DNA of 64,000 nt from Escherichia phage DT571/2: the sequence record NC_047749.1; one strand, 5' to 3'. The notes beneath the pieces were generated by a model. The model was not told the DNA's origin, ran no database searches, and was given only the letters and a program-made list of their open reading frames with translations. The translations under genes and the position numbers were made by a program. Positions 1-51,632 of the stretch are shown here, piece after piece. Each line of letters starts with the position of its first letter. Within the stretch, counting starts at the first letter, position 1.

Positions 1-73
1 GCTCACCGCCGGAGGCGAAAATACTTAGTCTGCTAACCGCCACCCCCCGTTACTATTACTCTGCTAACTATTT

Positions 74-102
74 CACCTTGCAACCATTTTAATTGCAAGG
101 TG
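74..102. other. stable hairpin (10-bp stem CACCTTGCAA / TTGCAAGGTG, 9-nt loop)
   Basis: perfect inverted repeat read directly; lies just past the dmp stop. Confidence 0.5.
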
Positions 103-123
103 AAACAAATTCAACTGTAATTA

Positions 124-858
124 TTACGCTACTTTTAATTTCTCAATATATTGTTGTGGGCTGCAACTATATTCTGCGCGCTCCTCCTCGGTCATACCTT
201 CCCAACATAATTGCAAGCGGTCGGCTAGGAACTGATAATCATTATCATCTTCAAGAGATTCATCAATAAAGGTTTCGCCGATCAATGTGACGCCTATTGA
301 TAGAATATCGTTAACGGCTTGCGCGTCCAGCGTTTTAAATCCATATGCCGCCGCCGCTGATAATACGCCTTTATGATCATCAATCATCGTGAAATCAGCG
401 TTCGGATATAGCTGTTTGAATAGCTCAAAATAATGGCTTTTATATATAGCGTCTTTACTGTGGTATATTTCGCTAACCTTATCAGCCGTAAAATATTTGT
501 GAAGTGTATCGCGGGAAAATACGCGGATATTGCTATTCCCACGCCCTCGCAGACCTTGTTTGCGCAAATAATAATAATCCGACTTACTCATCAGGCGAGC
601 GGTGCAAATAATGTTTAACGTGTTGGCGTCATTCATGCATTGGCGCATATAGGTAACGAGCGGCAAAAGCGTATCCTGCATTATTAACTCATGTTTGCAC
701 GCTTCATTTTTATACTTATTTAAATCTAAATCGCCTTCAATATCAAAGCAAGGCGCTACACGGTGGGCGGAGTTAATGATCGTGCCGTCCAGATCCCAAA
801 TCATTACGCGGGAAATATGCGGGTAATTGCGGGAAATATTCTTTTTATCTTGATTCAT
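124..858 (-). CDS. dmp: 5'-deoxyribonucleotidase, HAD superfamily (T5 Dmp-like)
   Basis: 244-aa ORF; HAD motif I DxDGT (MIWDLDGTII) near N-terminus; first gene at left end as in T5. Confidence 0.8.
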   Translation of the reverse strand: MNQDKKNISRNYPHISRVMIWDLDGTIINSAHRVAPCFDIEGDLDLNKYKNEACKHELIMQDTLLPLVTYMRQCMNDANTLNIICTARLMSKSDYYYLRKQGLRGRGNSNIRVFSRDTLHKYFTADKVSEIYHSKDAIYKSHYFELFKQLYPNADFTMIDDHKGVLSAAAAYGFKTLDAQAVNDILSIGVTLIGETFIDESLEDDNDYQFLADRLQLCWEGMTEEERAEYSCSPQQYIEKLKVA

Positions 859-932
859 TTTGTTACGTTCTCCATTAAAGGGATTAAGTTAATTTAATCC
901 AGCCCATACAGTGGGCTGGAGTATTTCAGTCA

Positions 933-1334
933 TTAAAATACCAGACCATAAGCCAAAGCATCAGCGATAACAGTAATATCCTCGCCAGATACACCGGAAC
1001 GAATACCGGCGCATGTAAATACCTTCGCGCTCATTAACTGATCATCAAGACAAGCGGGGCAAGGCGCGACAACTGCGAAAGCTAAACCAGCTTTTGCGGC
1101 GTCAATAATAGTCGTTTCTTGTTTCATCGTATCAATGTAAACGCCTTTCGCCTTGATGCGGCTAGATAGCTTGCCCGTGGTGTAGGCGAAAGTAGTGATC
1201 TGTAGCGCCTCATTAAATTCGATTAAGTCATCAACAACGTGCCCCGCCTCGACGTGATAGCGCTCACCGGTAGAATAAACTAGGACGATTGCAGACTGCG
1301 CGCGATCGAATGGGATACGGTTGTAAGTAGTCAT
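933..1334 (-). CDS. pre-early protein, A2-like by size and position
   Basis: 133-aa ORF between dmp and A1; no motif recognised. Confidence 0.55.
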   Translation of the reverse strand: MTTYNRIPFDRAQSAIVLVYSTGERYHVEAGHVVDDLIEFNEALQITTFAYTTGKLSSRIKAKGVYIDTMKQETTIIDAAKAGLAFAVVAPCPACLDDQLMSAKVFTCAGIRSGVSGEDITVIADALAYGLVF

Positions 1335-1403
1335 GCGTATAACTCCAATTAATTTAATAAACTTTTATGGCGGCGGTATATTTCGCCCGCCCGCCTGATT
1401 TAT

Positions 1404-3068
1404 TTACGCGAAAAATTTGCCGTTTTTAAAGTCGATTAACGTGCGCTGCCCGTTTGCATATGTAATTACATGCGTTTGCGTCCAGCTTGATGCGCCGACG
1501 TTGTAGCCCATATCGAGGCTGCCCGATACGCCAGCAGTATATACGCCGCCGTAAATGCTGGCGGTATGGGTGTGCCCCGTGTTTAATTTGCCCAACTTTT
1601 TAAATTGCTTCGGATTGCCGCGGCTCCCGTTGATGCCGTTGTGACCGTGTACGCCGCACTCAATGCCTGCAATCTTGAATGATTGATCAGTCGTTAGGAA
1701 TATGGCGTTAAACTCACAGCCTGCAACCTTGCGCAGCGCATAATCCAGCACGTTGAAAGTATCGTCATTTTCTGCAATAGCTCCATAGATCGCGGCGTTG
1801 AGGCGGTGATATAGCTCTGCGTTTGCTGGATCGTCTTTAATGTTAGCGTTGCGATCATCCAGCCAACGGGATAACGCCAGATCGTGGTTTGACTCAACAA
1901 TGATTGTTTGCGAGAAATCGCGCTCCATTGATTCCAATACACGCCCCGTGTCGATAAGATCATCTAAAACCTTATCACGTCCGGCGGCGTACTGTTTTGC
2001 TAGGAATACGCCAGATGCGCGATTGTGGTGGTTGCGTGATGTAAAGTCATGCACATCATGCACGAACTGATATTTAGGTTTAAGAATATCAAGCAAACTA
2101 TTTTCGCCCGCCCATGACGCTTCAGCACACGCCTTATCTAATTTTTCAGCGTGCACGTCGCCATACTGTAAACCTAAAACATGCCCCGATGTTTCATAAC
2201 ATCCGGCGGGAGTGGCGCAAATATTCAAATCATAAAAAACGCCGGTTTCATCCATCGTCTCAAGCTGGCGAACAAAAAATGCCCCGTCCTCGTCAAACTC
2301 GACAATCAGCGCGCCAAAGTTATGTAACGCTTCGGCCTTTTGCCCTGCTTTCTGCTGAATGTAGTTTTTTAGCGTTGCCGCTCCCGTTGAGTACATACGG
2401 CGCACTACTTCACCTTTGAGCGCTGGAACGCTTTCTGCGGTGATTTTAGCTGCTCCAATTGCCAAACCTTCAAGATCAAGCGCTGTTGCAGTCTCAGCGA
2501 ATCCAGAAAGCGGGTAGTCTGCCGTTGGCAAAACATTAATCTCAGCCATGAAAGCAAAGCGGCGACTATTTAAAAACACGTTTTTATTACAGATATATTT
2601 ATCAAAAGCGGAATCATATTTGATCCCGTCCGCACCTTCTCCATTCTGGAATCCTTTTTTGTTATAAATGAACTTGCTAACCAGCAAATCAGCGCCGATA
2701 AATTGGGCGTAATGTTCAAGTGAGGCTAAAAAGTTTTTATGCGGGAACGTGTTGTTCTGGATTGATGTTATAATGAAGCGTTTGCCCTGCTTTACTTCCC
2801 ACTGTTCAACCGTGCTAGAAATAATTCCCGCCGCCTCTGGGCGCTCGTCGTTTTTAACGGCTTTTGATGCTTTCGCCTCTTTTGGTTTCGCTGGTTTGTT
2901 TGCTTCCAGCCAATCACAAATTGCGGTCGAATGTTTTGCCGTATCGTACACCGCTTTTGATATATCGTCGCAGACTTCCAATCTAGTAGCGCGCAGACGT
3001 TTACCGTAAAAATTAAAATCAGCGGCCAGCTTCAGGATAACGGTTTGTTTTTCTGCGGAAATAACCAT
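1404..3068 (-). CDS. A1: pre-early protein A1-like, calcineurin-type metallophosphoesterase (probable nuclease)
   Basis: 554-aa ORF; phosphoesterase motifs GDVHAE, VESNHD, GVHGH, GHTHT; size and position match T5 A1. Confidence 0.8.
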   Translation of the reverse strand: MVISAEKQTVILKLAADFNFYGKRLRATRLEVCDDISKAVYDTAKHSTAICDWLEANKPAKPKEAKASKAVKNDERPEAAGIISSTVEQWEVKQGKRFIITSIQNNTFPHKNFLASLEHYAQFIGADLLVSKFIYNKKGFQNGEGADGIKYDSAFDKYICNKNVFLNSRRFAFMAEINVLPTADYPLSGFAETATALDLEGLAIGAAKITAESVPALKGEVVRRMYSTGAATLKNYIQQKAGQKAEALHNFGALIVEFDEDGAFFVRQLETMDETGVFYDLNICATPAGCYETSGHVLGLQYGDVHAEKLDKACAEASWAGENSLLDILKPKYQFVHDVHDFTSRNHHNRASGVFLAKQYAAGRDKVLDDLIDTGRVLESMERDFSQTIIVESNHDLALSRWLDDRNANIKDDPANAELYHRLNAAIYGAIAENDDTFNVLDYALRKVAGCEFNAIFLTTDQSFKIAGIECGVHGHNGINGSRGNPKQFKKLGKLNTGHTHTASIYGGVYTAGVSGSLDMGYNVGASSWTQTHVITYANGQRTLIDFKNGKFFA

Positions 3069-3165
3069 AATATTAAAACTCCATTAAAGGGATTAAGAAC
3101 GTTTGTTATTGGCAAATATTGCCAAATATAACGCTGCTTATTAACAGCGTTATAATTTGCAATAC

Positions 3166-3411
3166 TTAACTGATCGGCATCAGGCTAGAACTAACACCAC
3201 AAACAACGGCGGTAATAAAACAAAATAAGCCTAAACGCTTTGCTAACTTTGATTTGCGTTTAAAGTAATATGAATCCAGATCATTCTGGAAATAAGCGAA
3301 CAATAATGAGGCCGCTACAATAAATAAACCTAGAATTAACGATTCAGTGGGATAAAAGATCATTTTAATAATTCCAGTTAAAGGGAAATTATAGTGGGGA
3401 ATATTCCCCAC
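3166..3411 (-). CDS. small membrane protein
   Basis: 81-aa ORF with two hydrophobic segments. Confidence 0.5.
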   Translation of the reverse strand: MGNIPHYNFPLTGIIKMIFYPTESLILGLFIVAASLLFAYFQNDLDSYYFKRKSKLAKRLGLFCFITAVVCGVSSSLMPIS

Positions 3412-3420
3412 TAATTAAAT

Positions 3421-3837
3421 TTATTCACCTGCGGATTGTTTTACTTCATCTGCTACGCCTAGTAATTGCGCTACGGCGTCCAGCGTTTCTAATTTTGCGC
3501 TTTCCAGACTTGCCAGATCGTCGGCGTCTTTGATAATGCCGGAATCAATGGCATGTTTAGCAATAACGCGCACATAATGCGCCTTGCGGATTGAACTACC
3601 GCCGCCAACTTTGCGCGGTTTATCGCTTTTCTGATACGCTTTTGCGCTGGTCAATTTTGAGCGAACAGACACAGGGGAAGTAGCGCCCACTGTTTTGGCG
3701 ATCTCTTTCAGGCCGTCGCTGTTTGCGAACTCTAAACCGTTTTCATTGATTAATTGCTGATACATAGAAACGGCTTTTTGGGTATTTTCTTCATTCCATG
3801 CAAATTTTGCGGATTTTTCGGTTTTAACGTTAGTCAT
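3421..3837 (-). CDS. hypothetical pre-early protein
   Basis: 138-aa ORF, tightly packed in leftward operon. Confidence 0.55.
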   Translation of the reverse strand: MTNVKTEKSAKFAWNEENTQKAVSMYQQLINENGLEFANSDGLKEIAKTVGATSPVSVRSKLTSAKAYQKSDKPRKVGGGSSIRKAHYVRVIAKHAIDSGIIKDADDLASLESAKLETLDAVAQLLGVADEVKQSAGE

Positions 3838-3937
3838 GGTATAAACTCCAATTAATTTAATTTAAGGGATAAGATTAACATAATGTTAATCGTTATATTT
3901 CCCCAATAGTTCGGGGAAATATAAAGTTAACACTAAA

Positions 3938-4189
3938 CTATGCTACAGCTTCCAATTTTTCGTTACGTTGAACAACTTTTACAACGTCGCCAGATTTAAC
4001 GCGAACACTAAAAACGGTTTTTCCGTTGTTGCTACGTTCCGTTTCTGCATATACTGCATCAATTACATCGAACGGCATGAGCGCCGCGCCTTTGATGCGT
4101 TCGGCCTTTCCGGTTGCCTCGTCTGTTTTAGTAACGAAAGGGATGAAAACGGATTGACCAATTTTTGGCGCGGTGATAGCGTTTTTCAT
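3938..4189 (-). CDS. hypothetical protein
   Basis: 83-aa ORF. Confidence 0.5.
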   Translation of the reverse strand: MKNAITAPKIGQSVFIPFVTKTDEATGKAERIKGAALMPFDVIDAVYAETERSNNGKTVFSVRVKSGDVVKVVQRNEKLEAVA

Positions 4190-4423
4190 GGTATAAACTC
4201 CAGTTATTTGATGGATTGTTCCGCATTACCTGCTAAAAAATAATAACAGGTAATAAGAAAAAATCCGCTCACCGTTAAAATCAATTTAAGGAACTCCACA
4301 CAGGCCGCTATATCCCGTTAGGGGGCGGGGCACATTATGGCAAGTACCGGCCGTCAAATTTTACCAAGTTATCGCTCTTGTTGAATCGGGTACATTTTAA
4401 AGCCTATCGGCTAGGGCGTCAAA

Positions 4424-4594
4424 TTATTTTTCGTTTTCTTTTAAATTAGAATTCTCCCAACTGAATTGCATCTCGCAAAATATTTTCCCATCTTTATGAT
4501 GGTAAGCGATCTCGCTCCCGTGGTTAGCACAGAAAGCGATCACTGCCTCAGCTTGTTCTACCGTGATATTGTTGGCCGTTTCTTTGATTTTCAT
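4424..4594 (-). CDS. small hypothetical protein (56 aa, not in ORF track)
   Basis: manual translation MKIKETANNITVEQ...; AAGGAG Shine-Dalgarno 8 nt upstream of ATG. Confidence 0.45.
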   Translation of the reverse strand: MKIKETANNITVEQAEAVIAFCANHGSEIAYHHKDGKIFCEMQFSWENSNLKENEK

Positions 4595-5220
4595 ATCGTC
4601 GTCTCCTTATAAGGTTAATAAGTTTGCCGCCGATGGGCTTTAAAATGCACCTGATTTTTAAAGAGCGCGGCGGTAAACTTTCCGCCGTGTAGTTCGTCAT
4701 TGCCGCCCTACGAGATAAATAATAGGGAATACCCAAAAAAGGTGCAACCTTAATTTTGTAAAGAAATGTAAAGAAAGCAAATACCCGCACCGCGTCCGGC
4801 GATCGCCCAAGTTTAAAGGAAACAGGCGCGCGGATACCATAAAACCGAGCTGATTGGCAAGTAATTTTTTCATTTTTATTTGCCTTGCCCTACTTGACAA
4901 AACTTAAAAAGCTCGTGGTGACGATAAACGGGCTATCCCTTTATGATGGGATACCTGAAAAATTTACCGCGTTGTAGGACGTTTTAGGCCGCTTATCTTC
5001 GATTTAACAAATATTTAACAAAAGCAAAATTGAAAAATAGTTTGAGAAGGTATTGACTTTTTAAAATCAAGACTAAACGAGTTATTTTAAAAAATTAATT
5101 AATTGACTTTTATTTGTTGTTGTGTAGTAGAAAGATAGCAGACTAATAATTGCTAGAATGATAATCATGCTGGTGATTGTAACAGACTGAACTATTAGCA
5201 GACTACTGATCCCGGAAAAT

Positions 5221-5260
5221 CTCATTAGCCAACTAACTATCTCATTAGCCAACTAACTAT
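5221..5260. repeat. 20-bp direct repeat x2 (CTCATTAGCCAACTAACTAT)
   Basis: two identical adjacent copies. Confidence 0.9.
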
Positions 5261-5270
5261 TTCATAAGTT

Positions 5271-5450
5271 ATAATAACTATAAAAATAATCACCGTTAAA
5301 ATAATCACTATAAAAATAATCACCATTAAAATAATAACTATAGAAATAATCACCATTATAATAATCACCATTAAAATAATCACTATAAAAATAATCACCA
5401 TTAAAATAATCACTATAAAAATAATCACCATTATTATAATCACTATAAGA
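5271..5450. repeat. 15-bp tandem repeat, about 12 copies (ATAATCACYRTTAAA)
   Basis: read directly; the 68-aa ORF 5237..5443 is its translation artefact. Confidence 0.9.
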
Positions 5451-5486
5451 AACTATCGGCTTAAGTGAGAACCACTATCATTTAAG

Positions 5487-5568
5487 TTATCCACAACGTT
5501 ATCCACAGCACAAAATGATTTGACACGATAGGCGGCGATATAAAGATTTATCCACAGACTTATCCACA
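5487..5568. promoter_or_regulatory. DnaA-box cluster, 4 perfect TTATCCACA in direct orientation
   Basis: boxes at 5487, 5499, 5548, 5560; two imperfect boxes follow to about 5600. Confidence 0.7.
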
Positions 5569-5872
5569 GGTTATCCTACTGTATATTTATCCAGGGTAAA
5601 AAGATAGTGTTTACAACTGCAATCAATTTTGAGCGGCCTAAAACGCTTTCTAACGAGCTGATCGCTGTAGGGTAATATTAAAGTAAAGCCTTTACCCGTC
5701 GGCCTAGAGGCTTCGCCGTGTTTTGCTCTTTACTGCACCGCTGCGCGGTTAGCATAAAACTAGGTGTTAGGCAAGAAAAATAAAAAGTAAAGTAAACGTT
5801 GCCCCTAGAAAGAAAATAATTTTACCGGTAACATCGAAAGCGGGTAATAATTAACCTAATGTAAAGTTTTGT

Positions 5873-5901
5873 AAGGCCCGCCATAATCAGCGGCCTTTTT
5901 T
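5873..5901 (+). terminator. putative rho-independent terminator
   Basis: stem AAGGCC/GGCCTT with 13-nt loop followed by TTTTTT. Confidence 0.45.
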
Positions 5902-5965
5902 GTTATACTGCCCTTACACCGTTTAAGGACGGTTAAAAATTTCCCGAAAAATTTGGAGGCTTAAA

Positions 5966-6145
5966 ATGGTTATTTTTCGATCTATTCTGGCGGGTATCTT
6001 GGGCGCTATTTTAACTCTATTTGCTACCGCTTACGGTATTCAAGATTCTTATTGCGGTTTAGTAAATACTAAACCTATGGTTATTATTGGCGCGGGTATC
6101 GCTGTTTTTTCTTATTTGCTGGGCTGCATGAATAAAGGAGAATAA
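5966..6145 (+). CDS. small membrane protein (59 aa, not in ORF track)
   Basis: GGAGG SD then ATG; hydrophobic translation MVIFRSILAGILGAILTLFATAYG... Confidence 0.45.
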   Translation: MVIFRSILAGILGAILTLFATAYGIQDSYCGLVNTKPMVIIGAGIAVFSYLLGCMNKGE

Positions 6146-6147
6146 AA

Positions 6148-6360
6148 ATGATCCGCAACGTTTCTCTTGCTCGTTCCAAAGGTTTTAAGCTGGTGGATGT
6201 AAACACGTTCGAGCGTCCTGGTTGTAAAATCGAATATATAGCGCGGAATAAAAACGCTTTCCGCGTTACAGAAAAGAGATTCGATAAACGCGGCAACGTG
6301 ATAGCTGAAACGGTTAAATATTTTGCCACCTTTTACGCGGCCTTTCGTGGGGTATTATGA
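6148..6360 (+). CDS. hypothetical protein
   Basis: 70-aa ORF with AGGAG SD. Confidence 0.5.
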   Translation: MIRNVSLARSKGFKLVDVNTFERPGCKIEYIARNKNAFRVTEKRFDKRGNVIAETVKYFATFYAAFRGVL

Positions 6361-6482
6361 AGAGCGTTGTTATTGTTATCCTTGCAATGGTTGGCGGTTT
6401 TACCACCACCTTGTTTAGAAATGATCCTCTTTTGCTAGGGATCTTTATGCTTTTATCTGGTTATCTGATCGGGAGGTTATAA
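6357..6482 (+). CDS. small membrane peptide (41 aa)
   Basis: ATGA start/stop overlap with upstream ORF; hydrophobic. Confidence 0.35.
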   Translation: MKSVVIVILAMVGGFTTTLFRNDPLLLGIFMLLSGYLIGRL

Positions 6483-6483
6483 A

Positions 6484-6828
6484 ATGGTGATTTATGAAGG
6501 TGATCGCCTTGTTGCTGATTGCCGTCCGGCATTGTTAGCAAACTACTTAAACCAGCTTTCGCCAGTATATAAAGGCGTTATAAATATTTATGAAGGCGGG
6601 GCGCATTATAAGATTAATGCGGTCGTTGCCCGTGAACTAGCGTTTCAATTTTTAACCTTTTCATCTTGCAATATTCAGGTCATGGGTGAGGCGTTAATTG
6701 CAGAAAATGAAGATGATTTTATTAATATCTTTCGCAAGATATGCACCGAGCGCCTGATAATGAAAGGGGCATATATTCAATCCACTGCGGATAGTATTGA
6801 AACGGCTTTTCGAAAGGTGGCACAATGA
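6484..6828 (+). CDS. hypothetical protein
   Basis: 114-aa ORF with GGGAGG SD. Confidence 0.5.
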   Translation: MVIYEGDRLVADCRPALLANYLNQLSPVYKGVINIYEGGAHYKINAVVARELAFQFLTFSSCNIQVMGEALIAENEDDFINIFRKICTERLIMKGAYIQSTADSIETAFRKVAQ

Positions 6829-6966
6829 AGCTATATATTTTCGCGGGTAATGTTGAGGCTGCAAATGATTCCGCTGGTGGCGATAGCGTTCGCCATTATT
6901 GGCAAAATTATATTTACTAGGCGTAATGATCACGGGGCACAACTATCAGGGAGTGCCCCTGATTCT

Positions 6967-6991
6967 CAAATGAGAATCATTCTCATTTGAC
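6967..6991. repeat. 25-bp perfect palindrome TCAAATGAGAAT-C-ATTCTCATTTGA
   Basis: read directly; shares the AATGAGAATCATT core with the downstream 22-bp repeats. Confidence 0.85.
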
Positions 6992-7209
6992 CGCGCCCGC
7001 GATGGTTAGCACACTAATGATTAGGGTGTTACGTGTCGCCTTGTGTGATCGTTAGCGGGCTAACTAATTTTCAAGCCTCCTCCAGATTTGCCCTTGTTTT
7101 AGTATCCCCATCAAAATAAAACGCGTTAGAAAGCGATTCAGGGCGTTTTAGGCCTATATTAGAATTATTCACTGCGTAGGAATACTGTATATTTATACAG
7201 TAGAATAAC

Positions 7210-7292
7210 CTGGGGATAAGTCGGTGGATAACGCTTCAAAATGGCTAGAATTTTGTCAAGGCAAATCGTGCTGTTGATAAGTCTGTGGATAA
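7210..7292. promoter_or_regulatory. DnaA-box cluster in opposite orientation to 5487..5568
   Basis: GTGGATAAC at 7224 and TGTGGATAA at 7284, plus imperfect TGGGGATAA at 7210. Confidence 0.6.
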
Positions 7293-7299
7293 CTTAAAT

Positions 7300-7590
7300 A
7301 ACAGTGTTTCTCACTTCCGTTTTTAAATGCGAATCATTATCATTTGCATTCCACTTCTTAAATGAGAATCATTTCACTTCTTGAATAGTTCTCATTCCCT
7401 TTCTTAAATGAGAATCATTTCACTTCTTGAATAGTTCTCATTTCACTTCTTGAATAGTTCTCATTCCACTTCTTAAATGAGAATCATTCCACTTCTTAAA
7501 TGAGAATCATTCCACCTCTTAAATGAGAATGATTATCATTCGCATTCCACTTCTTAAATGCGAATGATAATCATTCTCATTCGCATTCCG
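7300..7590. repeat. about 10 tandem copies of a 22-bp unit (CACTTCTTAAATGAGAATCATT / CACTTCTTGAATAGTTCTCATT) with flanking short inverted repeats
   Basis: read directly. Confidence 0.85.
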
Positions 7591-7617
7591 GCGAGCAGGG
7601 CAATTGCCCTGCGCTTA

Positions 7618-8350
7618 TGTGCAAATCCGACAATTGCTCCAAGGGTTACGCGAGGGCATGTATGTGCAAATCCGACCCATTTTTTGGTAGTGTGCAAATC
7701 CGACCCCAAAAATTTATAAATTCGTGAGAGTGACAAATCTGTCTCCCAAAAACTCCAGCAATCACGAACTGCGTTCGAATCCTGTGGGGTATGTGCAAAT
7801 CCGACACGGTTTTTCTAGGATTAAGATGTGCGAATCCGATGAAATTTTTGTGACTTCGATGAGAGGGTGTGTGATTGTATAGGTTTGAGGAGAAGATGAG
7901 AGAGCGAGAAAAATTTTGGGGCTAGAAGTGTATGGGCGCAGGATTGGTGCGGAGCACCTGATTTGCGGGGGTTTTGGGGGATAGTGGAGATAATTTGGGG
8001 AAATTTGAGATAGGTGCAGAAAAAGTAAAATTTTATTAGCTAAAGGGGGCAATATAGCTTGACAATTGAAAATTCTTGTGGCTCTAAAAACTCAGGCAAT
8101 CATGGGCCTTCGGCCCGAAATAATGCTGCTATTTTCAGGAGATTATATGTTCCTAAAAACTTAGGCGTTTGTGCAAATCCGACCATAAATTTCTAGAAAC
8201 ACAATGTGCAAATCCGACAGTAATTCCTGGAAATGTGTTTTCAAAAAATGTCTCCTAGAAATAACCGCCCTCCCTATAACCGCCCTCCCTATAACCGGCC
8301 TAGGTATGTAACGTTGGAGGGAAACTGCCCTAGAATATGTGCAAATCCGA
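7618..8350 (+). repeat. dispersed co-oriented 14-mer TGTGCAAATCCGAC, 8 copies
   Basis: copies at 7618, 7663, 7691, 7792, 7827 (variant), 8170, 8205, 8338; several preceded by CTAGAA. Confidence 0.85.
8261..8297. repeat. 15-bp tandem repeat x2.5 (ATAACCGCCCTCCCT)
   Basis: read directly. Confidence 0.85.
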
Positions 8351-8725
8351 TTAATATTTTTGTGTGATCCCTAGAATTTGTGCTTATCAATTTCCTAGAA
8401 ACTTAGGAGTCTGCTAGAAAGTGTTGAGCCATCCTAGCAGATGAGCGGCAACCGGTGTATCATCTTGAACACAGATATTGCCTTTAAATTTTTATCAGTT
8501 ATTTAAAAGTAAATAGTCCCCCATTTCATGTGAGATTCCTCGTGGGGCGCGTGAGTATTACGGAAGACTTAGTAATTAGATCTATACTCGTGCTGTCGCA
8601 ACGTATAGACGTAATACTAAGTGTAATAATCATCGCCCCTAGAGTTCAAAACAAGAGTTGTTTTTAATCTATGAGATTATTATAACATGTTTGGGTATGA
8701 GAATGCAAGAACTTTTTGTTAACGT

Positions 8726-9082
8726 TTATACTTCCTCCTCGAGATTGGTATTAGGATCGTAAATTTTCTTGGCTCCTGTATTTAATAGGAATCGCTCTGC
8801 AAGTAGTGGGTGAATATCAAAGAACTCTGTGCATCCTTCGAATCCCTTTAAATTACAGCGGTATTTCTTAAAGTAGATATGAGCAGCGGCTTCTAGATCT
8901 CTAGGATTATGGGTTTCATAAATCCCATACACGTATAAATCGTCAAAACCACGATAAACTATATTATCTAAGTTTAGTGTTTGAATCCTATTATGTGGAT
9001 TCACACTGATACCGATCTTTGTTCTTTTAGGGATCTTCGTCAGATCCCTATTTGCAAGAATATATGCTTTATATAGTGACAT
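8726..9082 (-). CDS. T5orf172 / GIY-YIG-like domain protein
   Basis: 118 aa; KIGIS.NPHNRI motif and C-terminal EFF resemble the T5orf172 domain. Confidence 0.6.
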   Translation of the reverse strand: MSLYKAYILANRDLTKIPKRTKIGISVNPHNRIQTLNLDNIVYRGFDDLYVYGIYETHNPRDLEAAAHIYFKKYRCNLKGFEGCTEFFDIHPLLAERFLLNTGAKKIYDPNTNLEEEV

Positions 9083-9809
9083 TCTTTCTAGCCTTTAGAT
9101 AGATTCCTTTAGATGCTAGATAGATATATGTAGCAAGGAATGAAGATGTAGATCCTGTTTCTTCAAGAGTAATAGATCCTTTTGCATAACGCTTAGTTCT
9201 AGGAGCCTGGTTAAGCACAAGTGCAGTGAGACTACCTAATCCTAGCGCATCCATTAAACGTTTGAAGGAGTCCTTTTCATCGTGGATAGCATATAGAATG
9301 TAATCTTCCGCTGTAGTTAGTTCTATATCGCGATGATGTGCCACTGCAATCCGTGCTACTACAGCTCCAATCGTTCTATAAATATCTTCAAACGTAATGC
9401 TAGTTTCAAAAGCTAATGCTGGAAGATGATCGAACTTACATTTCTTAGGCGGAATAAGAAGTTGTTCAGGATAAGCTTCTAGTGCCTGACGAACGTTTGC
9501 TTCTGGGTATGTTGGCAAAGGTTCATCTATAATAACATGTAAGAAATTAGCTCTGTGTCCTTTAGCAGTTGGATCTAAAGACTTCAATACTTTGTTCATA
9601 TCTACGTATGAATACGCTAGATCTGCTTGTGGGGCATTAATATCAAACTTAATCTTCTTACCCTCCCATTTAGCAGGGAACATCTCACAAACAAACATTA
9701 CTGCATGTTTAACCTCTGGCTCCAGCTCTGATAGACATTTGTGATCTGCTGTTACTGCTAGAGCGAGAATATTCTTAAATTTATTAGCTTCTTCAATCAT
9801 ATATCCCAT
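9069..9809 (-). CDS. hypothetical protein
   Basis: 246-aa ORF. Confidence 0.55.
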   Translation of the reverse strand: MGYMIEEANKFKNILALAVTADHKCLSELEPEVKHAVMFVCEMFPAKWEGKKIKFDINAPQADLAYSYVDMNKVLKSLDPTAKGHRANFLHVIIDEPLPTYPEANVRQALEAYPEQLLIPPKKCKFDHLPALAFETSITFEDIYRTIGAVVARIAVAHHRDIELTTAEDYILYAIHDEKDSFKRLMDALGLGSLTALVLNQAPRTKRYAKGSITLEETGSTSSFLATYIYLASKGIYLKARKNVTI

Positions 9810-10138
9810 GCCTGCTGACTATTATCACTAACTTGTGTCTTTTTCTCTCTTCGTGGTTTAAAAGTTCCTGTAGTATTACTTTTACTAGGTTCTAATTTAT
9901 ACCACAGCATTCCTAGCTGGTTAACCATATGAGCAACATTTCTAGGGGTCAATGGCGGTAGGGATTCACAGTTTGATATCTCCCTTAATATATTAAATAG
10001 TTCTGCCTCTTTAGCTTTATTGTTTACTACCACCACGTACTCTAATGTTTCTACCTCAGAATCCTCATCCTTATAGTAGAGGCTAAGAGTAATTAAATTC
10101 TCCCCAGCAGGGGCTATTTTTGTTTTACCAAATATCAT
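9797..10138 (-). CDS. hypothetical protein
   Basis: 113-aa ORF. Confidence 0.5.
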   Translation of the reverse strand: MIFGKTKIAPAGENLITLSLYYKDEDSEVETLEYVVVVNNKAKEAELFNILREISNCESLPPLTPRNVAHMVNQLGMLWYKLEPSKSNTTGTFKPRREKKTQVSDNSQQAWDI

Positions 10139-10734
10139 TAACTACCTCTCTTATCTTCGTTAAGAGCAGCTCCTAGTGCTTCCATAATTGCATCTTCTAT
10201 ACTTCCATGCTTACTAGGATTGCTTAAGTGAATAGTATATGAGTTCCTAGAAACTCCAGAGTCCACAGGTGCTGCGCTTTTCCTATCAGACTCAAAAGCT
10301 TCTTGGGTATGTTTCAACTGTACAGAAGGCCCATAGTCTTCCCCAACTCGATAGGACTGATTAGACGACAGCGTACCACCGCAGGGAACATTGTGCAAAT
10401 CCGATGGATTATTTAATAGTGCAATACCACCTCTTGGCCACGAGTCACTAACATGAGTACTAGGACGGTTAACCTCAGTCTTCACGAGTTTATAACCAGC
10501 ATCTATTAATGCATTAATAAGGTTATCAGCTGGAATGCGAGCCTTGCCAAAAATCTCACGAGCGTTGTTGAGCCTACCTTCAAAACCTTTACATGCTCTA
10601 ATATTAGTGTGTGCAAAGGTTAGCTTCATAGATTTGAATTGTACAGTAGCAGTTAAATCTTTAAAGCTATAATCCCACGTATTCAGTTCATGATCTGGTA
10701 CTACTTGAATAGATTGCTGTGCATATAAAGTCAT
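10138..10734 (-). CDS. hypothetical protein
   Basis: 198-aa ORF; contains one copy of the 14-mer at 10393. Confidence 0.55.
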   Translation of the reverse strand: MTLYAQQSIQVVPDHELNTWDYSFKDLTATVQFKSMKLTFAHTNIRACKGFEGRLNNAREIFGKARIPADNLINALIDAGYKLVKTEVNRPSTHVSDSWPRGGIALLNNPSDLHNVPCGGTLSSNQSYRVGEDYGPSVQLKHTQEAFESDRKSAAPVDSGVSRNSYTIHLSNPSKHGSIEDAIMEALGAALNEDKRGS

Positions 10735-48248: not shown

Positions 48249-48842
48249 ATTTATATTGAATTGAGAGACATTAGTAAAAATTGATTTTGCTAATTTTTCT
48301 TAGTGAAGCTGACAAGGGATTTACGGCGAGAGGAATCGATGACCCGTAAATAGCTGCATAAGGTACGTTGCTAGAGCTTTACGAAAAAGTTTTTTCTTGT
48401 TTACAATCCGCGATACGGAACAGTTAGGCTGCCCCATTAAGGGTTGTTTTAACTATTACTAGTGTTTATATTGCATTAGTTAACCTTCAATTAAGTGATC
48501 TGTGTACCCTGAATTCGGAAAGGTAAATCCAAACCGTGCATATTTAGCTCGTTATATAGGCAGAGCTTTATATGGGGGTGCGAACGAAAAGAGCAGCGAA
48601 TGGCGGCACGTACAGTAGTCACCTACCAATAGGATAGTGAGGACAAGTAGAATCGGCTTAGCGGCCAATGACCTAGGTTCTATTCTGTATAAGAGCGAAG
48701 AGAGCACAGCACTGAGATATGATAACTTATTCATATTGTTTGATGATAATTGATGTTTACGTAAATAGTAGTAATAGTTGTTCTATTCTTTCTGAATAGT
48801 CCTAAAGAAAAGATTTCGATTAACCAACACAGGAGTATTATT

Positions 48843-51632
48843 GTGTTTTCTATCCTCCAAGGTCACGCCGGGTTTTCTCGTGATTTAGCAACAGGTATTT
48901 GGCGAGAAATCAAAGCGGGAGATTATACCTTTGCCAAGCGATTCTCGAAAGAGCATCCAGAAGGTAAACCAGCTTCTATGCCCTTCAAATTTGATGTAAT
49001 AGAAGAGCACGACCCACAAAGCCTTGCAGAAATGTTACCACTTATGAGACGTTTAACGTCTGACCCTCATATCGTTGCGGTACGAGGTCGATGTCTTGCA
49101 CCTAAAAATAATGTGCGACGTAAGAAAGATAACTTTAATGTATCTAATCCTAGTAATATTATTGCTATGGACGTGGATGGTATCCTAGATACCGGTGGGT
49201 ACGACAAATTTAATCTTGTTGGTATGGCCCGCCACATTATTAAGATGTTGAATAGTATTAGTGAGGATATGTTTCCTCTTGATGCAGGCTTTATAGCTCA
49301 TGCATCATCTTCGGCTGGGCTAAAACCAGGTATCCGAATGCACTTAATACTAGAATCTAACGTCAAGGTAACTCAGGGTCAGCTAAAGTTCTTATTTACA
49401 TCTATCAATGATAGTAGTAAGCAAAAATTTGGTTTTGATATTGCCGACCTAGCTTATTACTCATCTGTCCAGCTCCACTATTTTGCCGACCCCTTATTTA
49501 GCGATGGTATTGTTGATCCGTTTAAAGCGGAGAGTAAGCCACGTCTGGTGTATGTTAAAGGCTCAAAAGTAAACTTACCTAATAATCTAGTTGACTATGA
49601 AACAACTAGAGGAGAGTTTAAAGAGGAATTCTACTCTTTACTCGATCAAATTAAAGGCAAAAAGATTGCTTCTGATAAAGTAGAAGAAACCATCAGCGAG
49701 TTAGAAGAGGCTGATGATGGAGTGTACTTGCGTATTATCCCCAAACTATACCATAGAGCATTAGAGGATGGTGTTGATTTTGAATGGCTAGAACGTGAGA
49801 TTAAACCAGCTTTATCTGAATATATTGCAACTAAAGATAACAGTCGTAATATTCAAGATTACTTTAATAACGGTCGCAAGCAGGCTCTCAAAGCGTTTGT
49901 TAATAATTCTAAACGTGAGATTCCACCAAATCTGAAAGGTGTTCCACTTAAGAAATTAGAAGTGGATTCTCCACCAGAAGTTCCGTACCTGAAGATTAAC
50001 ATTGTGCCCCCAAAAGGTCATATAACATTTGTTAAGGCAAGTCTTGGTACGGGTAAAACTACGGCAGTAACTAAATGGCTGGACGCAGGTGTTCTTCCGG
50101 GCAACTTTTTAGCAGTTACAAATACTAGAGCACTGGTATCTTCAAATGCCAAGAAATTTAGTGCAGGACAATACGATAAGTCTGTAGATATGCTCAACTT
50201 TAAACGTGGGGCTATTGATCGTATGTCCACAACTATTCACTCTTTGCATAAGTTCAAAAGTTTTATTGGGCAAATAGACACCATTTTTATTGATGAATGT
50301 GACGCTGTAATGAATGACCTATTATTCGCCCCTGTTGTTAAACAACGTCGCGAGTGTATTCAAGTTCTACGTGACATCCTCATGACAGCTAAGACTGTAA
50401 TCTTATCCGATGGTGATATTAGTGCGGAAACAATTGAAGCATATGGTTCTTTGATTGAGTTCGATAAACCAGTTGCATTTTACAATCACCACCGTAAAAT
50501 GTTATCAAAGGCTCATGCTTATGAATTCCCTGATGAATCCAGTATTTGGGTTGCACTTCAGACTTCTCTAGAGATGGGTGAGAAATCTATTCTAGTATCT
50601 GATTGTGGTCCTGATGAGCTGAATGAGAAGGGTATGGCACTACGTCGTAATACTGGTGCATTAGTTAAAGAAATCCATTCAAACTCCACTTCAGATGTGG
50701 ATATTCGACGTATTCTGGATTATACAACTAATGAGCTAATTGATCAACAAATTGATTGCTTATTATGTAGTCCATCCGTAACGAGTGGAGTTGACTTTAA
50801 CTATTTTGATAACGTATTTGTTATTACTAGAACCAGTAATCAGGCGCCAAACATGCGTTTTCAAGCAATCAGGCGCGACCGTGGTGCTCAGAATATCTAT
50901 TATTTTATTGATAAATCCACTAGTGGATTCTCTGCGGGTTCTGAACAATATAATATCGATGAAGGTTGGCTGGAGTTAGCACAGCAATTATATGCACGTC
51001 GCAGGGAGCTGGAGTCTAGGAACTATACTAGTACTTTACGTTATTACTTGCTTGATCAGGGTGCAACTATTGATATTTTCAGTGAAAGCTGGGGAACTAT
51101 TGAAGGTGCTGGTAAAGAATACACAGAAGAGCGAATCAAAGCTATTCTACATTCAACTCCTGATTATTGTGCTCCACGTCATGCGGATGCGTATGAGGCT
51201 AAACTACTTATTGTTCGCTATTATCATCTTGAGTCTATTAAAGATGTAACAGTTGAGCATGTTGAACAATATATCAAAGATAAGCCGAATGATCGAGCTG
51301 CATTCTTCCATAAGATGCACGAGATGTTCTGGGAAGATATTAAGAAGTGTTCAAATGTGACCATTAAACCATTCATAGAAGCTCTGAAAGGTAAGAAGAA
51401 AGATTTCTTCCTTAAAACAGGTCAGAGTGCTAACCCAAAATATGCTAGAATGTATCTTGGTATGATGGGTATTGGTAAAGATATGAACACGGAGAATATC
51501 GTAGACTGGTATAGAACCTACTGCAAAATCGAATGTATGCCAATCCCTCTCAAATTCATGACTGAAGAAGAGAAGGCTATGGCAGAAGAAGCAATGTCAG
51601 AACTAGGTGCTAGAAATGACAGTGAAGAATAA
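48843..51632 (+). CDS. large P-loop NTPase, helicase or origin-binding-like (GTG start)
   Basis: 929 aa; Walker A GTGKTT, Walker B IDECD; AGGAG SD before GTG. Confidence 0.7.
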   Translation: MFSILQGHAGFSRDLATGIWREIKAGDYTFAKRFSKEHPEGKPASMPFKFDVIEEHDPQSLAEMLPLMRRLTSDPHIVAVRGRCLAPKNNVRRKKDNFNVSNPSNIIAMDVDGILDTGGYDKFNLVGMARHIIKMLNSISEDMFPLDAGFIAHASSSAGLKPGIRMHLILESNVKVTQGQLKFLFTSINDSSKQKFGFDIADLAYYSSVQLHYFADPLFSDGIVDPFKAESKPRLVYVKGSKVNLPNNLVDYETTRGEFKEEFYSLLDQIKGKKIASDKVEETISELEEADDGVYLRIIPKLYHRALEDGVDFEWLEREIKPALSEYIATKDNSRNIQDYFNNGRKQALKAFVNNSKREIPPNLKGVPLKKLEVDSPPEVPYLKINIVPPKGHITFVKASLGTGKTTAVTKWLDAGVLPGNFLAVTNTRALVSSNAKKFSAGQYDKSVDMLNFKRGAIDRMSTTIHSLHKFKSFIGQIDTIFIDECDAVMNDLLFAPVVKQRRECIQVLRDILMTAKTVILSDGDISAETIEAYGSLIEFDKPVAFYNHHRKMLSKAHAYEFPDESSIWVALQTSLEMGEKSILVSDCGPDELNEKGMALRRNTGALVKEIHSNSTSDVDIRRILDYTTNELIDQQIDCLLCSPSVTSGVDFNYFDNVFVITRTSNQAPNMRFQAIRRDRGAQNIYYFIDKSTSGFSAGSEQYNIDEGWLELAQQLYARRRELESRNYTSTLRYYLLDQGATIDIFSESWGTIEGAGKEYTEERIKAILHSTPDYCAPRHADAYEAKLLIVRYYHLESIKDVTVEHVEQYIKDKPNDRAAFFHKMHEMFWEDIKKCSNVTIKPFIEALKGKKKDFFLKTGQSANPKYARMYLGMMGIGKDMNTENIVDWYRTYCKIECMPIPLKFMTEEEKAMAEEAMSELGARNDSEE

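Follow-up and report, generated by a model that had tools for sequence, protein, structure and literature searches.

Bacteriophage T5 pauses after 8% of its DNA has been injected and restarts through A1 and A2, and how it does so is a question standing since the 1960s, to which the repeats described here attach. Second-step transfer requires A2, a DNA-binding protein (Davison, bioRxiv 10.1101/866236; 2026 work), and papers of 2026 still describe the process as poorly understood. A2 was purified as a DNA-binding dimer, as cited by Davison, and the accessible literature reports no cis target for it. The T5 record (GenBank AY587007) annotates copies 1-12 of a 'direct repeat D' (DRD), with copies 1-9 at 9672-10409, copy 10 in ORF019 and copies 11-12 within exo2/D13. 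Davison (bioRxiv 10.1101/866236) lists the repeats in T5 Repeat Region 3, the injection-stop-signal region, and his model gives them no role; the text also provides the repeat spacing for 'DST57C', and phage DT57C appears to be among those compared.

Arrays with a comparable layout are known from other systems. The lambda cosB R sites, the SPP1 pacL/pacR boxes and the P1 pac hexamers are short repeats lying by a terminase cut, as the DRD copies do here, and T7 carries the short repeat arrays SRL and SRR next to its terminal repeat. The iterons of theta-type plasmids and lambdoid phages are co-oriented non-palindromic repeats that, as at this locus, stand by DnaA boxes and AT-rich repeats. Finally, oriC-like clusters of DnaA boxes have been proposed to act in the T5 injection stop, and the array has real DnaA boxes 330 nt to its left.

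The direct repeat D array of phage DT57C

The window, that is, the whole 64,000-nt stretch of DNA analysed, is 100% identical to bases 1-64000 of the Escherichia phage DT57C record (KM979354.1; genus Tequintavirus). The motif TGTGCAAATCCGAC occurs in eight plus-strand copies at 7618-8351 and in a ninth at 10392 (Table 1). An earlier note on this DNA had reported eight near-identical copies in one orientation and a further one inside a CDS, and both statements are borne out: six of the eight are exact, one has a single mismatch and one has two, while the ninth, also with one mismatch, lies in a minus-strand CDS. The same note had regarded a frequency no higher than local chance as fatal to its reading; allowing up to two mismatches there are 10 matches against 0.28 expected, and none of 100 shuffles reached 10. 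The tenth match (36253) was discarded as a chance DnaA-box-like site that T5 lacks.

These co-oriented 14-mers are the already annotated DRD family of the T5-like phages. Their sequence, order and orientation are the same as those of T5 DRD copies 1-9, with eight clustered copies in DT57C versus nine in T5, DT57C being without an equivalent of T5 copy 4; the copy at 10392 is T5 'direct repeat D copy 10'. The family assignment takes in the consensus (six exact and three near copies of the 14-15-nt TGTGCAAATCCGAC), the position (to the right of major nick 1 and the DRC/DRE repeats, across the terminal-repeat end and with a copy in the ORF019 homologue) and the single orientation with conservation in T5-like phages. 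Hence, the sequence feature itself is already annotated and published, not new. The motif string was not found in the literature accessible to search. Nor did we find the following stated in accessible sources: the strict polarity of the repeats, their constant straddling of the repeat end, the nick-plus-repeat composite, the identity of the core out to Vibrio phages together with its lineage variants, the DNA-level conservation of the distal copy, or a comparison of candidate reader proteins.

Comparison of the two ends of the DT57C record reveals a direct terminal repeat of 8085 bp (1-8085 and 99981-108065, 99.975% identical), and the array is situated at the right edge of its left copy. It lies inside a 1.9-kb non-coding stretch, between rightward pre-early genes that end at 6828 and leftward early genes that start at 8726. 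Since the latter (8726 onward, minus strand) point towards the array, it is downstream of them and not upstream. Two discrepancies in the deposited annotation of KM979354.1 were seen in passing: the annotated 'terminal repeat region' (100104-107699) disagrees with the computed repeat, and the annotation is out of register in mid-genome, where the helicase is annotated at 48315-51104 and the ORF is at 48843-51632.

The earlier note had favoured binding sites for a sequence-specific protein over promoters, stating that the copies do not match the T5-early promoter consensus. Indeed, no promoter-like site is found at any copy. In the region 6800-8800, promoter-like sites of sigma-70 type (-35/-10 with 16-18 nt spacing) number four against 5.6 expected, none of them at a copy; such sites are thus no commoner than in shuffles of this region, which lies between convergent genes. 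Likewise, terminators in the region are not above chance, and the best match to the Rfam covariance models reaches 25 bits against a threshold of 100. The preference for binding sites over promoters accordingly gains from the sharp edges, co-orientation and conservation of the repeats and from the absence of promoters, while the binding itself is putative and any reader a candidate. What the note's array reading left out was its annotated status in T5, its straddling of the terminal-repeat end and its abutment on a nick site.

One detail of the note did not hold up. It had described several copies as preceded by CTAGAA at a fixed distance; only two of the nine copies have this hexamer within 40 nt upstream, with gaps of 6 and 2 nt. 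Instead, CTAGAA forms a separate co-oriented plus-strand cluster of seven copies at 7922-8419, at 12.7 per kb compared to 0.73 per kb window-wide. The hexamer is also seen after nick 2 (CCCTGCGCtctcCTAGAAactc) and in distant relatives.

The region left of the array contains further elements. Five perfect TTATCCACA boxes are present, arranged as two plus-strand pairs with 3-nt gaps and one minus-strand box, in agreement with Davison's IRC/IRD description. In the AT-rich repeats just left of the array are Fur-box-like 19-mers, GCGAATGATAATCATTCTC, at 7525-7543 (minus) and 7560-7578 (plus), which match GATAATGATAATCATTATC at 16 of 19 positions; another pair lies inside dmp (228-252), giving four matches against 0.06 expected. 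Units of the aatgataatcatt type are found at the equivalent place in Proteus, Aeromonas and Vibrio relatives.

Table 1. Features in and around the direct repeat D array (DT57C coordinates, except where a locus is named; conservation values are for 22 related phages)
Feature	Position	Strand	Remarks
A2 gene	3421..3837	-	pre-early DNA-binding protein; leading candidate reader
Palindromes and DnaA boxes	TTATCCACA at 7284; four more at 5487-5568		leftmost part of the region
AT-rich repeats	7330-7590		left of the nick consensus
CCCTGCGC, T5 major-nick consensus	7607..7614	+	nick 1 (7.9%); abuts DRD copy 1
DRD copy 1	7618..7631	+	exact; 3 nt after nick-site consensus; T5 'direct repeat D copy 1'
DRD copy 2	7663..7676	+	exact; conservation 0.955
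DRD copy 3	7691..7704	+	exact
DRD copy 4	7792..7805	+	exact
DRD copy 5	7827..7840	+	TGTGCGAATCCGAT, 2 mismatches; last one within the terminal repeat
Purine-rich spacer between the two DRD clusters	7841..8058	+	read from sequence
Most conserved block of the region	8059..8130	+	TTGACA...CTTGTGGCTCT, repeat end at 8085, AAAAACTCAGG, hairpin GGGCCTTCGGCCC at 8104-8116
DRD copy 6	8170..8183	+	exact; first past the terminal repeat, 85 nt after its end; conservation 1.000
DRD copy 7	8205..8218	+	exact
DRD copy 8	8338..8351	+	1 mismatch; least conserved (0.558), in some relatives only
Distal DRD copy	10392..10405	+	1 mismatch; inside minus-strand CDS 10138-10734 (T5.019 homologue)
DRD-like copies in D13/sbcC of DT57C	66849-66877 (L005 2849-2877)		tandem, at 66849 and 66864; counterparts of T5 copies 11-12
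Other D13/sbcC DRD-like copies	L072 3020-3049; L080 984-1006

Conservation and lineage-specific variation of the repeats

A search for the motif across related phages was the check that the earlier note had proposed, and the array came through it. We gathered 51 loci from IMG/VR with A1 as probe, and in all 41 with at least 65% A1 identity the array is present in the same order; the 326 core matches in these loci are without exception in one orientation. The resulting logo, w-a-T-GTGC[A/g]AATCCGA[C/t], has information close to zero in its flanks, apart from a weak T-run 6-8 nt downstream. Thus, the motif is a sharply bounded 14-15-mer. Among 22 distinct close relatives its columns are conserved at 0.914 compared to 0.793 for the rest of the region, a value reached by 114 of 5000 random placements. 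Beyond these relatives, the 12-mer core recurs unaltered in phages of Klebsiella (IME260-like), Pectobacterium (My1-like and L043/DU_PP_V) and Serratia (Slocum), and in Vibrio phage Dax. In Dax the core GTGCAAATCCGA is unchanged even though its A1, A2 and TerS are only 31%, 41% and 44% identical to the DT57C proteins, and across the distant core-sharing phages the spacers between copies cannot be aligned.

The same comparison uncovered variants of the motif. Phages pVp-1 and VspSw_1 keep GGTGC[A/G]AA with a loose second half, whereas Vibrio phage D124 has ATGTGCGAA (GTGCGAA) followed by acct or ttca; three Vibrio phage lineages carry motifs that differ from one another. Aeromonas phage Akh-2 has GTA[C/A][T/A]AAAyCGAy. 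In Proteus phage 1 the DRD array has decayed to a single remnant (TGTGCGTAATCGAC) after its CCCTGCGC, and a different co-oriented array stands in place of the second cluster. The latter (L068 5170-5357) consists of about 10 co-oriented repeats of 15-18 nt, GAATAATAGAATGGTGGG in T5 orientation, located past the TTGACA..GTGGCTG block. That the variants track the phage lineage and not the host suggests a reader encoded by the phage instead of a host protein.

About 2.3 kb beyond the repeat end, the distal copy stands out from the surrounding part of its CDS by its higher conservation. Serratia phage Slocum has an exact copy 2.1 kb past its repeat end in an unrelated CDS, and the frames in which the two are read differ, with RICTM in Slocum and SDLHN in the other. 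Retention of the motif in two reading frames of unrelated CDSs points to a constraint on the DNA and not on the protein. These patterns bear on the idea that the repeats are non-functional products of duplication or slippage in a repeat-rich non-coding region. The region is indeed full of other repeat families, and the poor conservation of copy 8 (0.558) would fit; however, such an origin would not account for a 12-mer that is identical where A1, A2 and TerS have only 31-46% identity and spacers are unalignable, for a uniform orientation in 326 of 326 matches, or for a distal copy kept across differing frames. We regard it as the least credible of the explanations and as very improbable.

A related question is whether the sites serve a host protein, either as weak DnaA boxes or as sites for a conserved gammaproteobacterial protein that holds the DNA at the membrane, which would extend Davison's DnaA model. 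The earlier note had excluded a match to the DnaA box. This stands insofar as the copies are not canonical boxes, but their reverse complement ATTTGCACA fits eight of the nine positions of TTWTNCACA; moreover, genuine TTATCCACA boxes are nearby, and phages of Escherichia, Klebsiella, Pectobacterium, Serratia and Vibrio share one and the same core. Against this, the repeats are longer than DnaA boxes and their conservation is unlike that of DnaA recognition: the invariant part runs 5 nt past the box (CCGA[C/T]), the terminal position, matching the final A of CACA, may be T, A or G, and the 'N' position is invariant. Further, the Proteus phage is without the array although its DnaA boxes are kept, and the variants follow phage lineage. 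A scan for paired 12-mer cores in one genome each of 185,579 bacterial and archaeal species recovered, besides one T5-like fragment, nothing but unrelated repeats, tandem or coding. A host factor is hence very improbable as the reader. A separate 2.3-kb contig from an alphaproteobacterial MAG (L063 440-640) has iteron-like tandem repeats of 22 nt, two of them with GGTGCAAATCCGA, which is probably a coincidence with a plasmid or phage origin.

Candidate phage-encoded readers

From the oriented, lineage-specific pattern we infer protein binding, and we consider it probable that DRD functions as an array of oriented sites to which a protein encoded by the phage binds. Judged from sequence, it alone among the elements of the injection-stop region has the look of a discrete and oriented site for a protein, and it is retained in coliphages and Vibrio phages alike. 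We propose that the array constitutes cis-acting iterons for a phage-encoded sequence-specific protein, placed where the DNA of the first transfer step, the terminal repeat, gives way to the remaining genome. Pfam searches with A2, TerS, SciA and the neighbouring ORFs recovered no informative domains.

We tentatively prefer A2, acting in second-step transfer, as this reader. A2 is produced while injection is paused, from the 8% of the DNA that enters first, and its N-terminal three-helix HTH, with the recognition helix V-R-S-K-L, could then bind the co-oriented GTGCAAATCCGA sites. The sites begin at the pause boundary and become sparser over the next ~2.8 kb. A2 might, together with A1 at the membrane, engage this DNA, upon which transfer would resume. 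It is possible, if somewhat doubtful in this fuller form, that DRD is the missing cis partner of A2 (or A1-A2), providing polar loading sites at the pause to restart entry of the remaining 92%, and that it is reused for the repeat end and nick 1. Our preference for A2 derives from when it is made, from where the array lies (at the pause boundary, with its distal copy in the DNA that enters first once transfer resumes) and from how well the recognition helix is conserved. If A2 does read DRD, the array would offer a testable switch for DNA entry, a defined DNA-protein switch for two-step injection.

Several observations accord with this choice. The nick and shear point at 7.9% precedes the array by 3 nt. 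In the AlphaFold model of A2 (mean pLDDT 81), a three-helix HTH at the N-terminus is joined by a disordered basic linker to a helical C-terminal part; a Foldseek search of this model against the PDB gave no significant match, the best (E ~1) being to a transposase HTH protein and Myb-like domains. The third helix reads VR(S/T)KL in every lineage with the GTGCRAA core and VRQKL in Akh-2, the one lineage that has a GTAnnAA core. A22, S60, Y88 and R90, from the 22 columns of A2 invariant in eight core-bearing phages, are changed in both Akh-2 and Proteus phage 1, and the invariant columns changed in variant lineages amount to 16/33 in A2 versus 12/44 in TerS. The residue covariation thus leans towards A2, as far as a sequence comparison resting on one or two independent lineages may indicate. 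S60 alone does not set the specificity, as A2 of Slocum has VRTKL with a canonical motif. We counted for A2 that the A1-bearing phages without A2 have no array; these distant contigs (L048-L057) have neither A2 nor TerS nor array and so cannot tell the candidate readers apart.

Other observations speak against A2. A symmetric dimer is expected to prefer inverted sites and not direct ones. Moreover, a pause located exactly at the nick would mean that the sites have yet to enter the cytoplasm at the time of A2 synthesis. The A2 model also leaves unexplained why the array invariably spans the terminal-repeat end, why copies stand beside the nick consensus at two separate loci, and why T5, DT57C and Slocum have copies in D13.

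The anatomy of the region raises the further option of a replication origin, in which the co-oriented repeats would be iterons read by the UL9-like D2 helicase or a similar initiator. As in plasmid origins, DnaA boxes are followed by AT-rich repeats and then by direct repeats. D2 matches the Pfam model Herpes_ori_bp (30.6 bits versus a cut-off of 20) and has been proposed in the literature as a replication initiator, and multiple origins have been reported for T5. Read in reverse complement, the G variant of the repeat contains TTCGCAC. This heptamer is the core of the HSV UL9 box, GTTCGCAC. The match between D2 and UL9, however, covers only the helicase motifs (residues 389-533) and no DNA-binding domain. 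Further, the putative HTH segment of D2 fails to follow the motif, being 70% identical in Proteus phage Stubb, whose genus lacks the array, and only 35% identical in Thalassavirus, the genus of Dax, which keeps the core. On account of this limited homology and absent covariation we rejected D2 as the reader. Unlike at iteron origins, there is no initiator gene adjacent to the array. The copy-to-copy spacing resembles that of iterons in the My1-like and DU_PP_V-like phages (17 and 27 nt) but is irregular in the T5-like ones (45, 28, 101, 35, 343, 35 and 133 nt in this array). Electron microscopy has placed the origins near the genome centre (Davison, bioRxiv 10.1101/866236). An origin function is consequently improbable, if a little less so than a host-encoded reader.

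The terminal-repeat end, nick sites and copies in D13

The two DRD clusters flank the right end of the terminal repeat (8085), which comes 245 nt after the first and 85 nt before the second. The same placement is seen wherever ends are defined: in T5, BF23, Slocum, DT57C and seven other records, and in My1-like phages, Dax and IME260-like phages, the end of the last being placed by its position relative to the repeat copies. The T5 end has the same sequence in two independent records; in BF23 the end determined by PhageTerm is separated from copy 6 on its left by 257 nt and from copy 7 on its right by 87 nt, and PhageTerm likewise puts the Slocum end in the gap between the clusters. In Vibrio phage Dax an exact copy is found 18 nt past the repeat end.

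A comparable regularity holds for the nick consensus. CC(C)TGCGC stands 2-4 nt ahead of the first copy in all nickase-bearing lineages examined except D124, in which the sequence before the first copy shows no clear nick consensus. The composite of nick and repeat recurs in D13 of Slocum, where a single exact copy, preceded by CTGCGCtctt, is at a position homologous to T5 major nick 4. In DT57C and T5 the DRD-like copies in D13 are in tandem, ~360 nt downstream of T5 nick 4. The D13 copies are at ~65% of the genome in T5, DT57C and Slocum. That the repeat is itself the nick signal was considered and rejected, as it has no GCGC and major nicks 2 and 3 are without DRD; in addition, a My1-like phage keeps the array while having neither sciA nor the nick consensus.

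The principal alternative to A2 is that DRD is a packaging signal, whose copies would be sites for the small terminase subunit (TerS, labelled 'probable SciB' in several records) and would position the right-end cut and the nick by copy 1. We hold this to be possible, albeit doubtful, and it explains the end straddling and the nick pairing better than the A2 reading. Repeats adjoin the cut site in T5, BF23, DT57C, Slocum, Dax and others, as in terminase pac/cos arrays, and the end falls between the clusters in every lineage with defined ends. By the last-in-first-out rule, the left end being injected first implies that the right end is packaged first, which is why an initiation site would be expected here. 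The succession of nick consensus and DRD at nick 1 (D124 being unclear) and in Slocum D13 would fit a joint role, with the nickase gene sciA in the packaging module and terS labelled putative sciB; further, a ring-shaped oligomer would suit co-oriented direct repeats. If the small terminase does read DRD, this would be the first defined packaging signal of a long-terminal-repeat phage.

On the other hand, the HTH region of TerS is not conserved along with the motif, being hypervariable among phages with identical cores; its predicted recognition helix is SEIAFRDIMNRSEV in DT57C versus PVAEVEAQLKKNEV in Dax, with only E51 and Y55 invariant there. From sequence conservation, the GFRN(R/K) segment of TerS is a possible DNA contact. 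The left boundary of the terminal repeat is without a nearby DRD copy, as are major nicks 2 and 3. Unlike cosB and pac repeats, DRD copies also occur 2 kb away and in D13, and it would be unusual for a pac site to include a distal copy, ~2 kb from the cut, that is under selection as DNA. Moreover, the terminase could in fact recognise the block around the cut (8059-8130), which is the best conserved of the region.

The ends themselves share certain features. Right ends finish with CTGTGGCTC, whereas most related records start with (T)GTCCAGTGGCC and DT57C starts with GCTCACCGCC. Left and right ends have C[AT]GTGGC[CT]C in common, possibly a terminase cut-site motif. At the nicks, CCCTGCGC is found on the plus strand at 7607, 19900 and 29179, the expected positions of major nicks 1-3. 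A TTACGCG-like box lies downstream, at 19 nt for nicks 2 and 3 and at 31 nt for nick 1 and T5 nick 4, which suggests that the box and the consensus might form a bipartite nick site.
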